4,906 bases of DNA, taken from a virus. Taxonomy: Duplodnaviria > Heunggongvirae > Uroviricota > Caudoviricetes. The stretch's first letter is position 1. Every line of letters begins with the position of its first letter. The translations under genes were made by a program, and so were the position numbers. The notes below the pieces were generated by a model. That model saw only the letters and a program-made list of their open reading frames with translations. It did not search any database and was not told the DNA's origin. Below are positions 77-4,906 of this stretch, piece by piece. The stretch lies in IMG/VR virus record IMGVR_UViG_2657245112_000028, one strand, 5' to 3'.

Positions 77-3037
77 ATGGCAGTAAAGATTTCAGGTGTA
101 CTGAAAGACGGCACAGGAAAACCGGTACAGAACTGCACAATCCAGCTGAAAGCAAAACGTAACAGTACCACGGTGGTGGTGAACACGCTGGCCTCAGAAA
201 ATCCGGATGAAGCCGGGCGTTACAGCATGGACGTTGAGTACGGTCAGTACAGCGTTATTCTGTTGGTGGAAGGCTTCCCGCCGTCACATGCCAGGACCAT
301 CACCGTGTATGAAGATTCCCGACCCGGTACGCTGAATGATTTTCTCGGTGCCATGACGGAGGATGATGCCCGTCCTGAGGCACTGCGCCGTTTTGAACTG
401 ATGGTGGAAGAGGTGGCGCGTAACGCGTCCGCGGTGGCACAGAACACGGCAGCCGCGAAGAAGTCAGCCAGCGATGCCAGCACATCAGCCCGTGAGGCGG
501 CAACCCATGCGACTGATGCTGCAGGCTCAGCACGCGCAGCCAGCACGTCAGCCGGACAGGCCGCGTCGTCGGCTCAGTCAGCGTCTTCCAGCGCAGGAAC
601 GGCATCAACAAAGGCCACTGAAGCATCAAAAAGTGCTGCCGCTGCAGAGTCCTCAAAAAGCGCGGCGGCCACCAGTGCCGCTGCGGCGAAAACGTCAGAA
701 ACGAATGCGGCAGCGTCACAACAATCAGCAGCCACTTCTGCATCCACCGCGACCACGAAAGCGTCAGAAGCTGCCACCTCAGCCCGGGATGCGTCGGCTT
801 CAAAAGAAGCGGCAAAATCATCAGAAACGAACGCATCATCAAGCGCCAGTAGTGCCGCTTCCTCGGCAACGGCGGCAGGAAATTCCGCGAAGGCGGCAAA
901 AACGTCCGAGACGAACGCTAAGTCTTCTGAGACGGCAGCGGGACAGAGCGCCTCAGCTGCGGCAGGCTCAAAAACAGCGGCTGCGTCGTCTGCCAGTGCC
1001 GCGTCAACAAGTGCCGGGCAGGCCTCAGCCAGTGCCACCGCCGCCGGAAAATCGGCAGAAAGCGCCGCATCATCCGCTTCAACAGCCACAACGAAGGCTG
1101 GCGAAGCCACTGAACAGGCCAGCGCAGCAGCGAGTTCTGCTTCCGCAGCGAAGACATCCGAAACGAACGCGAAAGCGTCGGAAACCAGCGCAGAATCCTC
1201 AAAAACGGCTGCCGCATCGTCAGCCAGTTCGGCGGCGTCATCGGCATCATCGGCGTCTGCTTCAAAAGATGAGGCGACCAGACAGGCGTCAGCAGCGAAG
1301 AGCAGCGCCACGACGGCATCCACGAAGGCGACAGAGGCAGCTGGCAGTGCGACGGCGGCAGCTCAGAGCAAAAGTACGGCGGAATCCGCGGCAACGCGCG
1401 CCGAGACAGCAGCTAAACGGGCAGAGGATATTGCATCCGCCGTGGCGCTTGAGGATGCGAGCACGACGAAAAAGGGGATAGTACAGCTCAGCAGTGCGAC
1501 TAACAGCACTTCCGAGTCACTGGCGGCAACGCCAAAAGCCGTTAAGGCCGCGTATGACCTGGCTAACGGGAAATACACCGCACAGGATGCAACGACAGCA
1601 CAGAAAGGGATCGTTCAGCTCAGCAGCGCGACCAACAGCACATCTGAAATGCTGGCGGCAACGCCAAAGTCGGTAAAGGCAGCCTATGACCTTGCTAACG
1701 GGAAATATACCGCTCAGGACGCTACGACAGCACAAAAAGGAATTGTCCAGCTCAGTAGTGCAACCAACAGCGCATCTGAAACGCTTGCCGAGACACCGAA
1801 AGCAGTGAAAGCAGCTAATGATAATGCGAATGGTCGGGTACCTTCTGCCCGTAAGGTGAATGGTAAGGCGCTTTCAGCGGATATAACACTGACGCCGAAA
1901 GATATTGGTACGCTTAACTCAACAACAATGTCATTCAGCGGTGGTGCTGGTTGGTTCAAATTAGCAACGGTAACCATGCCACAGGCGAGTTCTGTTGTTT
2001 CAATTACGTTGATTGGTGGCGCGGGATTTAACGTGGGGTCACCTCAACAGGCAGGTATATCTGAACTTGTTTTGCGTGCAGGTAATGGTAATCCGAAGGG
2101 GATTACTGGTGCTTTATGGCAGCGCACATCGACAGGGTTTACAAATTTTGCCTGGGTCAATACATCTGGTGATACTTACGATATTTACGTTGCAATCGGA
2201 AATTATGCGACTGGTGTAAATATTCAATGGGATTATACCAGTAATGCCAGCGTGACGATTCATACGTCACCAGCATATTCTGCTAATAAGCCGGAAGGGT
2301 TAACGGACGGTACAGTTTATTCACTCTATACGCCATCAGAGCAGTTTTATCCGCCTGGCGCACCAATCCCGTGGCCATCAGATACCGTTCCGTCTGGCTA
2401 TGCCCTGATGCAGGGGCAGACTTTTGACAAATCTGCATACCCGAAACTTGCAGCCGCTTATCCGTCAGGCGTGATCCCTGATATGCGTGGCTGGACGATT
2501 AAGGGCAAACCCGCCAGTGGTCGTGCCGTATTGTCTCAGGAACAGGACGGCATTAAATCGCACACCCACAGCGCCAGCGCATCCAGTACGGATTTGGGGA
2601 CGAAAACCACATCGTCGTTTGATTACGGCACTAAATCCACGAATAACACCGGGGCTCATACGCACAGTCTGAGCGGCTCTACAAGCTCGGCCGGAGCACA
2701 CTCGCACGTTGATGGTCGCAGGTTTAATACAAGCACTTTTAAAGACACCTATCAGTATGGTTCTACAGCTGTCGGAAGTAACTCATACCAGGTACAAGGG
2801 GCGGTTGGTCTGGGCATTGGCACGATGGCGAATACGAACTCTGCTGGCGCGCATACCCACTCACTGTCCGGCACTGCTGCAAGCGCAGGTGCACACGCAC
2901 ATACTGTCGGTATTGGTGCTCATACGCACTCCGTTGCGATTGGCTCACATGGACACACCATCACCGTTAACGCTGCTGGTAACGCGGAAAACACCGTCAA
3001 AAACATCGCATTTAACTATATTGTGAGGCTTGCATAA
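77..3037 (+). CDS. stf: Side tail fibre protein (lambda Stf family), 986 aa from ATG 77 (ORF track opens at GTG 71)
   Basis: N-terminus [20 protein letters not shown]... matches the lambda/lambdoid Stf N-terminus as I recall it. Purine-rich SD-like gtggggtg lies upstream of ATG 77. Architecture is N-terminal attachment domain, A/S/T-rich shaft, three tandem 44-aa fibre repeats, then a His-x-His-rich C-terminal tip. Stop TAA at 3035-3037 overlaps the tfa start (TAATG). Confidence 0.92.
422..1440 (+). repeat. Low-complexity Ala/Ser/Thr-rich shaft region of stf with recurring K(T/S)SETNA quasi-repeats
   Basis: About 340 codons dominated by A/S/T. The motif (A)KTSETNA(K/A)(S/A)S recurs at about 691-720, 826-850, 898-930 and 1150-1180. 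The GC-rich codon bias produces long spurious ORFs in other frames. Confidence 0.7.
1469..1820 (+). repeat. Three tandem in-frame 132-bp (44-aa) phage tail fibre repeats inside stf
   Basis: [12 protein letters not shown](T/A)SE(S/M/T)LA(A/E)TPK(A/S)[21 protein letters not shown] occurs three times. The K-G codons sit at 1472, 1604 and 1736, giving an exact 132-bp period. The third copy diverges after AVKAA. Resembles the 'phage tail fibre repeat' family (from memory). Confidence 0.85.
2561..2956 (+). other. His-x-His motif cluster (7 motifs) in the stf C-terminal tip, a putative metal-binding needle domain
   Basis: HTH 2561-2569, HTH 2657-2665, HSH 2699-2707, HTH 2852-2860, HAH 2894-2902, HTH 2921-2929, HGH 2948-2956, mostly within G-A-H-T-H-S contexts. 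Confidence 0.6.
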
Positions 3038-3450
3038 TGGCATTCAGAATGAGTGAACAAGCACGGACCATAAAAATTTATAATCTGCTGGCCGGAACTA
3101 ATGAATTTATTGGTGAAGGTGATGCATATATTCCGCCTCATACAGGTCTGCCAGCAAACAGTACCGATATTGCACCACCAGATATTCCTGCTGGCTTTGT
3201 GGCTGTTTTCAACAGTGATGAGGCATCGTGGCATCTCGTTGAAGACCATCGGGGTAAAACGGTTTATGACGTAGCGTCAGGGGACGCGTTATTTATTTCT
3301 GAACTCGGTCCGTTACCGGAAAATGTTACCTGGTTATCGCCGGAAGGGGAGTTTCAGAAGTGGAACGGCACAGCCTGGGTGAAAGATGCAGAAGCAGAAA
3401 AACTGTTCCGGATCCGAGAGGCGGAAGAAATAAAAAACAGCCTGATGTAG
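3037..3450 (+). CDS. tfa: Tail fibre assembly protein Tfa, N-terminal 137 aa, ended by an in-frame amber (TAG) codon
   Basis: [93 protein letters not shown]... is near-identical to lambda-type Tfa as I recall it. The start ATG overlaps the stf stop (translational coupling). TAG at 3448-3450 falls where lambda-type Tfa has CAG (Gln). Confidence 0.85.
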
Positions 3451-3621
3451 GTAGCCAGTGAGCATATTGCGCCACTTCAGGATGCTGTAGATCTGGAAAT
3501 CGCAACGGAGGAAGAAACCTCATTGCTGGAAGCCTGGAAAAAGTATCGGGTGTTGCTGAACCGTGTTGATACATCAACTGCACCTGATATTGAGTGGCCT
3601 ACGAACCCTGTCAGGGAGTAA
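3451..3621 (+). pseudogene. tfa: In-frame 3' remainder of tfa downstream of the amber codon, encoding the conserved Tfa C-terminal domain
   Basis: Same frame as 3037-3450, open for 56 codons to TAA at 3619-3621. Encodes [56 protein letters not shown], the conserved C-terminal region of Tfa proteins. No plausible internal restart codon with an RBS. Confidence 0.7.
3456..3576 (+). repeat. Direct repeat copy A (tfa 3' segment), about 89% identical to 4505-4625
   Basis: Ungapped alignment of 3456-3576 with 4505-4625 (offset 1049 bp) gives about 13 mismatches in 121 bp, with an identical ~40-bp core (caggatgctgtagatctggaaatcgcaacggaggaagaaa). Confidence 0.9.
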
Positions 3622-3635
3622 TCATTGGGATTATG

Positions 3636-3684
3636 CCGCAGCACGTCTTAAGCAAGAACGTGCTGCGGTTGGATGCTATTTTTT
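3636..3684. terminator. Stem-loop between convergent tfa (+) and methyltransferase (-) genes; possible bidirectional terminator
   Basis: Perfect 10-bp inverted repeat ccgcagcacg (3636-3645) / cgtgctgcgg (3659-3668) with a 13-nt loop. On the + strand a T-run (3679-3684) follows after a 10-nt gap. The arms are flanked by A-rich sequence on the minus strand. Confidence 0.45.
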
Positions 3685-4344
3685 CCCTGAAGCGGAAAAC
3701 ATTACTACAGTACCTTGAACCTTGGTTTTAACATTCTCGAAATGCTCTGAGAGTATATGTGTTAAGCCTTCTTCGGAATCTTTTGTGTTTGAAAAGATGC
3801 CTTTCTGATTGTAAATGCGCATCAGTTTTTGACCGAAGCTATTGTGCACAACTCCATCGCCAAGAATTGTGGCTCCGTATAGAGTTCCATCGTCAGTTAA
3901 GGCCTGCGCCGCATTGCGTATTACACAGCTTTTTGTAGATATATTTCCAGGCAGGCAGTGAAGAAGGTAAAACATGGAAATGGAATCAAATTGACCATGT
4001 AACGCCGCGGGATAAGGTTCAAAAACATCATGGCTAATTTTATGTTTAATTTTTGATTCCCCAGCCCTTGTAGATGCCGCGTTCAGGCTAGCTTCGTTCA
4101 AATCCATTAAAGATATCAGACTACTCTCAGGTACGTGAGTAAGGTAAAACCCAGTTCCAACACCAATATCCAGATGGTTGTTACCTAAATGTTCCAGAAA
4201 GTGTGGAAGAAGGTGTTCCTTTGTAGGACATCCCCATGCAAGCCGATTTGATACTCCCAAAACCCACCAGTCATAAAGCTTTAGGGTAAGTGGTGTGTAA
4301 ATTTTAGCCCCATCATCTGTGTTTTTTTTCATTAATTTCACCAT
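3676..4344 (-). CDS. Class I SAM-dependent methyltransferase-like protein (222 aa; possibly 218 aa from the ATG at 4330-4332)
   Basis: Rossmann methyltransferase motifs in canonical order: motif I HLDIGVGTG (aa 57-65); acidic post-I residue in LMDLNE about 17 aa later; motif II-like FDSISMFYLLHCLP; motif III-like LTDDGTLYG. Lies in a visibly AT-rich island, convergent with tfa. A GGTGA SD-like element sits 5 nt upstream of the second ATG (M5). Confidence 0.65.
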   Translation of the reverse strand: MVKLMKKNTDDGAKIYTPLTLKLYDWWVLGVSNRLAWGCPTKEHLLPHFLEHLGNNHLDIGVGTGFYLTHVPESSLISLMDLNEASLNAASTRAGESKIKHKISHDVFEPYPAALHGQFDSISMFYLLHCLPGNISTKSCVIRNAAQALTDDGTLYGATILGDGVVHNSFGQKLMRIYNQKGIFSNTKDSEEGLTHILSEHFENVKTKVQGTVVMFSASGKK

Positions 4345-4400
4345 GTTATAGTTTTATTTGTGAATTAAATCAATTATGGCGATGAATTACAAGGGGTTAA
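4345..4400. promoter_or_regulatory. AT-rich divergent intergenic region, likely holding promoter(s) for the methyltransferase (-) and tfa-like ORF (+); includes the AAGGGG RBS for ORF 4401
   Basis: 56 bp of very AT-rich sequence between divergently oriented ORFs. AAGGGG at 4391-4396 lies 4 nt upstream of ATG 4401. No -35/-10 pair could be assigned with confidence. Confidence 0.3.
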
Positions 4401-4733
4401 ATGCTGCCGCAGCATAGCGATATTGAAATAGCCTGGTATGCTTCGATACAACAGGAGCCGAATGGCTGGAAGACCGTCACCACACAGTTCTACATCCAGG
4501 AATTCAGTGAGTATATTGCGCCACTGCAGGATGCTGTAGATCTGGAAATCGCAACGGAGGAAGAAAGATCGTTGCTGGAGGCATGGAATAAATATCGGGT
4601 ATTGTTGAATCGAGTTGATACATCAGTAGCTCTGGGTATGAAGCTGTTTGTAACTCATGTTACAGTAACAGTCATTACTATCTCGAAGGTGCAAAATGCT
4701 GAGAGATCCCCTCATAATTTCCCCAAAGCGTAA
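4401..4733 (+). CDS. Tfa-like remnant/chimeric ORF (110 aa): 5'-truncated divergent tail fibre assembly gene with an unrelated C-terminal tail
   Basis: Residues 37-75 ([38 protein letters not shown]) repeat the Tfa C-terminal domain seen at 3466-3576. An in-frame TAA lies immediately upstream of the ATG, so the N-terminal part of any ancestral gene is missing. After RVDTS the sequence diverges from the TAPDIEWP ending. Has a good RBS. Confidence 0.45.
4505..4625 (+). repeat. Direct repeat copy B (tfa-like 3' segment), partner of 3456-3576
   Basis: See copy A. Same orientation (direct, not inverted). The two copies bracket the methyltransferase island. Confidence 0.9.
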
Positions 4734-4906
4734 CCATGTGTGAATAAATTTTGAGCTAGTAGGGTTGCAGCCACGAGTAAGTCTTCCCTTGTTATTGTGT
4801 AGCCAGAATGCCGCAAAACTTCCATGCCTAAGCGAACTGTTGAGAGTACGTTTCGATTTCTGACTGTGTTAGCCTGGAAGTGCTTGTCCCAACCTTGTTT
4901 CTGAGC
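4712..4906 (-). CDS. Possible 3' end of an unidentified minus-strand gene running off the window (C-terminal 64 aa: ...[44 protein letters not shown])
   Basis: Minus-strand frame is open for 64 codons from the window edge to a TGA (complement of 4712-4714), while all + frames here are full of stops. No recognisable family, and the start is outside the window. Confidence 0.3.

Follow-up and report, generated by a model that had tools for sequence, protein, structure and literature searches.

The open reading frame (ORF) at positions 4401–4733 is an allele of tfaX (b0563), a known remnant gene of DLP12-type lambdoid prophages, and is very probably a scar without function, left by illegitimate recombination between lambdoid phages and interrupted here by IS10. 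The DNA in which it lies, a 4,906-nucleotide viral stretch referred to below as the window, corresponds to a contig in a draft E. coli assembly (GCA_000948715.1, JXVQ01000188.1) and carries the right arm of a DLP12-like lambdoid prophage, and the ORF is located in it between a ybcY methyltransferase gene and a hydrolase/ompT cargo. The frame is a mosaic of four parts, which meet at three boundaries: the start signals and first codons of a small phage gene of the phrog_3893 type, a fragment of a tail fiber assembly (tfa) gene, a stretch of non-coding DNA and the end of an insertion sequence. The features of the window are as follows.

77–3037: stf, the tail fiber gene ahead of tfa
3037–3621, plus strand: full-length tfa of the tfaD type, with a probably inactivating TAG at 3448–3450; repeat partner of the tfa fragment below
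3676–4344, minus strand: ybcY-type class I SAM-dependent methyltransferase gene (Pfam methyltransferase domains, RefSeq annotation)
4401–4733, plus strand: the composite ORF, an IS10-fused tfaX (b0563) allele of 110 amino acids (K-12 match, position, exact protein in NCBI)
4375–4487, plus strand: head, with the Shine-Dalgarno (SD)-like AAGGGG (4391–4396), the ATG (4401) and codons 1–29, homologous to the 5′ end of a phrog_3893-type gene
4488–4505, plus strand: 5′ junction zone of 18 nt, in which homology to both parents is ambiguous
4506–4630, plus strand: tfa fragment, codons 36–77, encoding the C-terminal trimerization domain (Pfam, PDB, repeat with 3457–3580)
4631–4698, plus strand: 3′ tail, codons 78–99, taken from the AT-rich non-coding flank of the alpha/beta-hydrolase and ompT block
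4699–4906, minus strand: terminus of IS10/ISVsa5 (IS4 family), beginning CTGAGAGATCCCC, which supplies codons 100–110 and the TAA of the ORF

The ORF is an allele of tfaX

The reading frame is as originally described: translation yields 110 amino acids on the plus strand, an in-frame TAA stands directly before it (4398–4400), and AAGGGG lies 4 nt ahead of the ATG. In K-12 MG1655 the gene order is tfaD, ybcY (a pseudogene), tfaX (b0563), appY and ompT, all within the "cryptic prophage DLP12". Because the window has the same neighbors (tfaD, ybcY, tfaX, ompT), and because protein comparison found the 61-residue K-12 TfaX to be 100% identical to the first 61 residues of the window ORF, the latter is an allele of this gene. 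By the RefSeq annotations of O103 RM8385 and K-12, the ORF occupies the orthologous slot of a DLP12-type prophage, with ybcY on one side and the ompT region on the other. In addition, the native 101-residue allele matches phrog_2341, its dedicated PHROG (E = 5e-56, positions 1–87 of 88), so that position, sequence and PHROG match all identify the ORF as a tfaX/phrog_2341 member. The locus was already known, as a cryptic-prophage remnant, as tfaX in K-12 and as a RefSeq pseudogene; the uninterrupted copy of O103 RM8385 is labeled "tail fiber assembly protein; incomplete; missing N-terminus", and the PGAP pseudogene "tail fiber assembly protein, missing N-terminus" begins at the equivalent of position 4494. 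NCBI holds the exact 110-residue protein (PDU47632.1 and others), from a few isolates.

The K-12 gene (formerly ylcE) is thus orthologous to the window ORF, with the same ybcY–ompT position and an identical RBS, start and first 61 residues. It differs in having a TGA at codon 62, followed by a normal Tfa ending (..RVDTSVAPDIEWLIQP) and then appY, whereas the window allele has an intact W62, runs into the hydrolase/ompT flank from about 4630 and is interrupted by IS10. We found no functional study of tfaX in the literature, in which the gene appears as a landmark of the appY promoter island and in SELEX tables.

The ybcY-type gene is divergent from the ORF, with a 56-bp spacer between them. It is an intact 222-codon ORF in the window and in phages, whereas the K-12 copy is a pseudogene. 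The SD spacing is better for a second Met five codons into this ORF (MKKNTDD...), so the start as annotated may lie 4 codons too far upstream. Together with the alpha/beta-hydrolase gene and ompT, ybcY forms cargo between the tail fiber genes and int in phages PhiR26_1, 2G7b, ev243, Turner and others (cargo-bearing segments: L004, 2837–6675; L003, 2837–6668), and the neighborhood of ompT in K-12 matches this lambdoid phage cargo region.

Disrupted alleles and variable 3′ ends suggest that tfaX is dispensable

A census of 14 sequences comprised 13 tfaX copies and a stub in phage Ayreon. The intact 101-residue allele accounts for 6 of the 13 copies, while 5 carry a premature stop, and for four of these five the source is a phage genome record with a host entry. 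In K-12, PhiR68_2 and Kati a TGA stands at codon 62, with a second stop at codon 33 in Kati, and a 7-bp frameshift deletion is common to 2G7b and PhiR49_1. The alleles have three unrelated 3′ ends, and further junction variants occur among database proteins (P0008, P0064, P0065). Within the 3′ tail, the substitutions seen (V91A, F83I, T93A) are all non-synonymous. Because of these three 3′ ends and the independent nonsense and frameshift alleles, including those of phages with hosts, the ORF looks dispensable, which supports the earlier view that it is probably non-functional.

Several observations count against its being a mere scar: the share of intact copies in the census, the occurrence of the 101-residue allele on at least 1000 contigs and in several deposited phage genomes, the conserved start and SD sequence, and the existence of a PHROG of its own. 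These favor TfaX as a functional small chimeric protein, whose Tfa helices would join or poison Tfa trimers and so modulate fiber assembly or a co-infecting phage. A precedent exists in StfE2 of prophage e14, which is likewise a chimeric ORF derived from rearranged tail-fiber-region genes of a cryptic prophage and which acts in phage defense (PMC12529663). However, StfE2 arises by programmed site-specific inversion (PinQ) and has a demonstrated anti-T2 phenotype (PMC12529663), whereas tfaX would be the product of a one-off illegitimate recombination and has no nearby invertase or inverted repeats and no known phenotype. We consider a functional TfaX improbable. The nonsense and frameshift alleles in phage records that list hosts argue against it, as do the three 3′ ends, of which that of the window is translated non-coding DNA in which the observed variants are only non-synonymous. 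Furthermore, the head would be a truncated piece of a predicted fold that needs the missing two thirds, and the AF2 model of the 110-residue product, made from the single sequence, has low confidence (pLDDT 52.7) and was left out of the fold comparison.

Evidence on expression bears on the same question. Genomic SELEX in K-12 showed in vitro binding of RNA polymerase holoenzyme to the spacer between ybcY and tfaX, which speaks for a functional product; this spacer is also H-NS-marked in K-12, and a promoter with the sequence ATGGCA-15-TTAAAT has been predicted in it (PMC3946193). The predicted −10 hexamer falls at 4397–4402, over the ATG, and a transcript from that promoter would therefore be without the start codon; this and the H-NS mark speak against a functional product. 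A promoter and terminator scan of 3550–4906 returned 2 promoter-like sites, as compared to 3.1 expected from shuffled sequence, and no terminators. Expression of a small product is possible, although the evidence for it is thinner than that for non-function. A more specific proposal, which we hold to be less probable still, is that the chimera is an expressed accessory protein that co-assembles with Tfa C-domains and interferes with the fiber maturation of competing phages. If this were true, the broken alleles would be losses where the protein is not needed.

The start signals and first codons belong to a phrog_3893-type gene

Our preferred reading, that tfaX is a recombination scar, is founded in part on the origins of its parts. 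In the head, the phage Ayreon copy of the small gene is identical to the window at 102 of 113 nucleotides over 4375–4487, and a Citrobacter copy (L006) at 77 of 87 over 4401–4487; beyond 4487 identity drops to background. Along the junction, identity to the small gene is approximately 90% as far as 4487, and from 4506 onward identity to tfa is 92%. In the zone between (4488–4505), identity is 6/14 to 8/18 with the closest phrog_3893-type genes (Ayreon, Citrobacter L006) and 8/16 with tfa. At the protein level, residues 3–37 of the ORF match positions 2–36 of phrog_3893, a PHROG of unknown function (E = 3.9e-7), and residues 29–77 match PHROG families of tail fiber assembly proteins (E = 1e-12 to 3e-15). 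The ORF thus contains the N-terminal ~36 residues of phrog_3893; the rest of the ~80-residue length, including the C-terminal ..NEWIEWYVTTFRDVSTQEGENRTFQLFNPNGGL, is absent, and homology stops at codons 29–35. It is therefore not a phrog_3893 protein, of which it has the head only.

Residues 1–36 were searched exhaustively against 1.84 billion representatives with phmmer, which gave 17 matches. These were short ORFs that start with the peptide, two deletion fusions that carry the head (a terminase::tfaX fusion, P0066, and an out-of-frame stf::tfaX fusion, P0067) and one distinct family of 63–117 residues, in which the head is followed by ...RFVQELSKVNWNWTMKQANEWIEWYV...; in P0068, P0069 and P0071 a head of 59–69% identity is followed by ...RFVQELSKVNWNWTMKQANEWIEWYVTTFRDVSTQEGENRTFQLFNPNGGL. 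The head (29–35 residues) is thus the N-terminus of a full-length conserved protein of another family, at 59–87% identity. No full-length Tfa parent of residues 1–36 was found in either a word-indexed search of 5.8 billion proteins or the phmmer search, the candidates among the longer matches being rejected as deletion fusions or members of the different family. The loose resemblance of residues 1–35 to the W..NG.W region of Tfa proposed in the original prediction is consequently unsupported, as these residues belong to the phrog_3893 family, and the search that it called for, for the parental allele, turned up no Tfa with this head; the 5′ breakpoint lies at 4488–4505. Because the N-terminal ~35 residues are the head of a phrog_3893-type gene, the "strong RBS" and the ATG would likewise come from the small gene; as judged from the alignments, both are inherited from it and still in their normal place.

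The idea that the whole ORF derives from a single divergent tfa allele that lost both its ends, and that residues 1–35 are a degenerate piece of the Tfa N-domain, could draw on the central domain, which is certainly Tfa, and on a MAFFT alignment that threads these residues onto Tfa residues 31–90 with few matches, but it is effectively refuted already, and hardly credible, given the ~90% identity of the head DNA to the other family, its background-level identity to tfa and a Tfa profile (Caudo_TAP, below) that leaves residues 1–30 uncovered.

In many temperate phages the intact ~80-residue parent gene stands at this position, namely after the tail fiber gene (plus tfa and, often, a minus-strand dinI) and before int/att. 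Examples are HK225, Erwinia Midgardsormr38, E. coli vB_EcoS-716R3 and Citrobacter prophages, and in HK225 the order is tail fiber, tfa, dinI (minus strand), gp28, invertase, attP. With phrog_3893 proteins such as HK225 gp28 and Midgardsormr38 ORF33, the window ORF has the RBS, the start, the first ~29–35 codons and the position in common; those proteins differ in having the full predicted a1-b-a2-a3-b-b fold and, usually, an adjacent UmuD-like gene, whereas the chimera keeps the first 35 residues, about the first third. The AlphaFold model of the parent protein (pLDDT 85) is confident only as a whole a1-b-a2-a3-b-b unit, and its order of elements is winged-helix-like. Foldseek of this model against the PDB gave no significant match (best E = 0.12), winged-helix domains dominating the top of the list as a hint only; the protein that contributed the head is possibly of the winged-helix type.

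The label "DNA polymerase V" that the small gene often bears has no visible basis. Behind the small gene there is usually a UmuD-like/Peptidase_S24 gene of ~108–129 residues, with overlapping stop and start, and ahead of it often a divergent dinI (loci L007, 6001–6632; L021, 3001–3566; L019, 2956–3569; L020, 3004–3303). The pair could be an SOS-linked two-gene module. In vB_EcoS-716R3 (L019, 94–1578), a retron-type reverse transcriptase gene and a fragment of a Pin-like recombinase gene lie just upstream of the intact phrog_3893/UmuD-like pair, a cluster of defense-type cargo in the same b-region slot.

The core of the ORF encodes the trimerization domain of Tfa

The Tfa C-domain core that had been noticed in the ORF is borne out by a match to Pfam PF02413 (Caudo_TAP) over residues 31–77 (E = 1e-17), which covers positions 75–121 of the 131-position profile and leaves positions 1–74 unmatched. 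Residues 123–166 of phage Mu Tfa (5YVQ_B), the only solved relative, align to residues 32–75 of the ORF (E = 1e-7). At the nucleotide level the core is one copy of a direct repeat of 128 nt (3449–3576 and 4498–4625, 88% identical) that it forms with the upstream tfa; the core interval itself, 4506–4629, is identical to 3457–3580 at 108 of 124 positions (87%). An invertible segment of the Pin/Gin type was considered as well and rejected, since the tfa-like copies are direct rather than inverted and the window contains no invertase.

The ORF therefore has the C-terminal helical domain in common with the Tfa proteins of lambda, K-12 (TfaD) and Mu. Unlike lambda-type Tfa, it lacks the N-terminal fiber-binding domain (~100–135 residues; ~135 in lambda-type Tfa), for only 35 residues precede the C-domain and these match phrog_3893 and no Tfa. 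The complete Tfa ending (..APDIEWP..) is also missing, being replaced by unrelated DNA from ~4631, and the ORF does not lie directly behind a fiber gene, as lambda-type tfa genes do, since the real tfa and the minus-strand methyltransferase gene lie between it and stf. Without N-domain, C-terminal ending or adjacency to a fiber gene, it does not count as a Tfa in function.

In Tfa, a variable N-domain binds the fiber, and the conserved C-terminal helical domain mediates trimerization (PMC9608196). It had been speculated that the translated fragment could interact with the fiber, in view of the loss of exactly this domain from the upstream tfa. The loss is real: the TAG at 3448–3450 is confirmed, and the prophage's own Tfa is probably inactive in the lineage of the window. 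The speculation fails, because the domain retained in the ORF is the one that mediates trimerization and not the one that binds fibers. A trimerization module unlinked to a fiber-binding domain would not be expected to complement the upstream tfa, and at most the product could associate with other Tfa C-domains. The amber codon is codon 138 of the upstream gene, immediately before the conserved C-domain; the same TAG is present in O103 RM8385, and phage PhiR26_1 has CAG (Gln).

The conserved segment also overlaps the Rfam small RNA model RF02111 ("IS009"), with cmscan scores of 223.7 bits at 3380–3578 in the upstream tfa and 107.4 bits at 4424–4627 in the tfaX copy; the gathering score is 117, which only the former exceeds. 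That the segment is an sRNA gene rather than coding sequence is nonetheless most unlikely: the tfaX copy falls short of the gathering score, the model maps base for base onto the coding region of the Tfa C-terminus, about half of it is unpaired in the consensus structure line, and most changes between the K-12 and window alleles in this region affect synonymous positions in codons. The conservation is accounted for by a protein domain of strong significance, so the IS009 matches here probably reflect protein coding.

The 3′ end combines flanking DNA with an IS10 terminus

The divergence reported after RVDTS is a real breakpoint, located after RVDTS(VA) at ~4630. A MAFFT hint that the tail might be a highly diverged tfa end was rejected: its local alignment score was 7, compared to a shuffle mean of 7.7 ± 1.3, and a fraction of 0.88 of the shuffles reached it. 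By the same measure the 3′ end of K-12 tfaX is tfa-like (score 15 versus 7.9; 0 of 2000 shuffles reach it). The tail is instead continuous with the intergenic DNA that leads toward the minus-strand hydrolase gene and ompT in O103 RM8385 and in phages PhiR26_1 and 2G7b. At this position the K-12 and phage 204576 alleles have the normal Tfa ending, which in K-12 stands behind the TGA. The native allele of the window type ends in ...KVQNVY*, at 101 residues.

Homology of the window (3400–4906 compared) to ~1,290 E. coli genomes ends at 4698, and 4690–4906 matches a region annotated "IS4-like element ISVsa5 family transposase" on 1,175 plasmids. A three-way alignment of a Tn10 copy, the native allele and the window puts the switch at 4698|4699, from which point the window is identical to the Tn10 copy. 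Both the terminal sequence of IS10 and its transposase frame are present, the C-terminus of the transposase (...HGYALGKL) being encoded on the minus strand at 4712–4906. The insertion exchanges the native VY* (the last two codons and stop) for 11 IS codons, giving 110 residues, and the stop TAA at 4731–4733 is thus IS-derived. The original prediction, which described a single 3′ divergence, missed the IS10 to which the last 11 codons and the stop belong. Compared with IS10/ISVsa5, the IS of Tn10, the window has an identical end and transposase C-terminus, but only 208 bp of the element, as the contig breaks inside it. This junction occurs in three draft assemblies, whose contigs all end inside the IS, whereas a search of 5,426 complete E. 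coli genomes did not find it.

A complete IS10 measures 1.3 kb and generates a 9-bp target duplication. The 9 bp before the IS10 end, 4690–4698 (TGCAAAATG), would be the target-site duplication; they match the known IS10 hotspot consensus, NGCTNAGCN, only in their first half. The Tn10-internal flank of the same IS end (TGCTAATTG) resembles TGCAAAATG at 7 of 9 positions, which is why the BLAST matches to plasmids run a few bases past the end of the IS.

Proposed history of the locus

The order and mechanism of the events that led to this mosaic can be inferred from the arrangements in related phages. A common order in lambdoid and related temperate phages is tail fiber, tfa, minus-strand cargo (dinI or ybcY), plus-strand phrog_3893-type gene, further cargo and int/att. 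A crossover would have joined two such genomes, one broken within codons 30–35 of the small gene and the other shortly before the C-domain codons of tfa, and produced a phage with the intact stf–tfa–ybcY of the first and non-essential accessory (b-region) DNA of the second. The ORF at the junction would have been an in-frame chimera, in which the head of the small gene, with its own RBS and ATG, was fused to the Tfa trimerization domain. The alleles of phage 204576 (89 residues) and K-12 appear to preserve this stage, with a complete Tfa ending. A second rearrangement at ~4630 would then have replaced the Tfa ending with the hydrolase/ompT flank and given rise to the widespread 101-residue allele, and the insertion of IS10 at 4698|4699 would have come last, in a few isolates.

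The original view of the ORF as a remnant of a different tfa allele, truncated at both ends by rearrangement, therefore holds for the core, a 5′-truncated tfa fragment that has lost its 3′ end, and not for the N-terminus, which is the phrog_3893 head. Similarly, the 3′ divergence does result from rearrangement, although from two events, the junction at ~4630 and the IS10 at 4699, rather than one.

Phage Ayreon represents the arrangement without the tfa graft, in that the DNA downstream of tfa runs straight into the leader of the head. Its locus (L005, 3161–3660) consists of a 32-codon remnant of the tfa 3′ end, then the last 11 codons of ybcY and then a decayed phrog_3893 stub. The Ayreon side tail fiber appears, by eye and from its Citrobacter counterpart, to end in a self-chaperone of the Peptidase_S74 type.

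Significance

As a known cryptic-prophage remnant, this locus carries little weight for biology at large. What our analysis adds is its precise anatomy: the ORF is assembled from four parts, and its start signals derive from a small, unrelated phage gene. Three warnings for annotation follow from it: the last residues of the 110-residue "phage tail protein" entries in GenBank are encoded by IS10, nothing here supports calling the ~80-residue parent family "DNA polymerase V", and Rfam IS009 overlaps tfa coding sequence. For the lambdoid phages themselves, the chain of recombination scars in Ayreon shows that the tfa C-domain sequence is a recurrent recombination joint.
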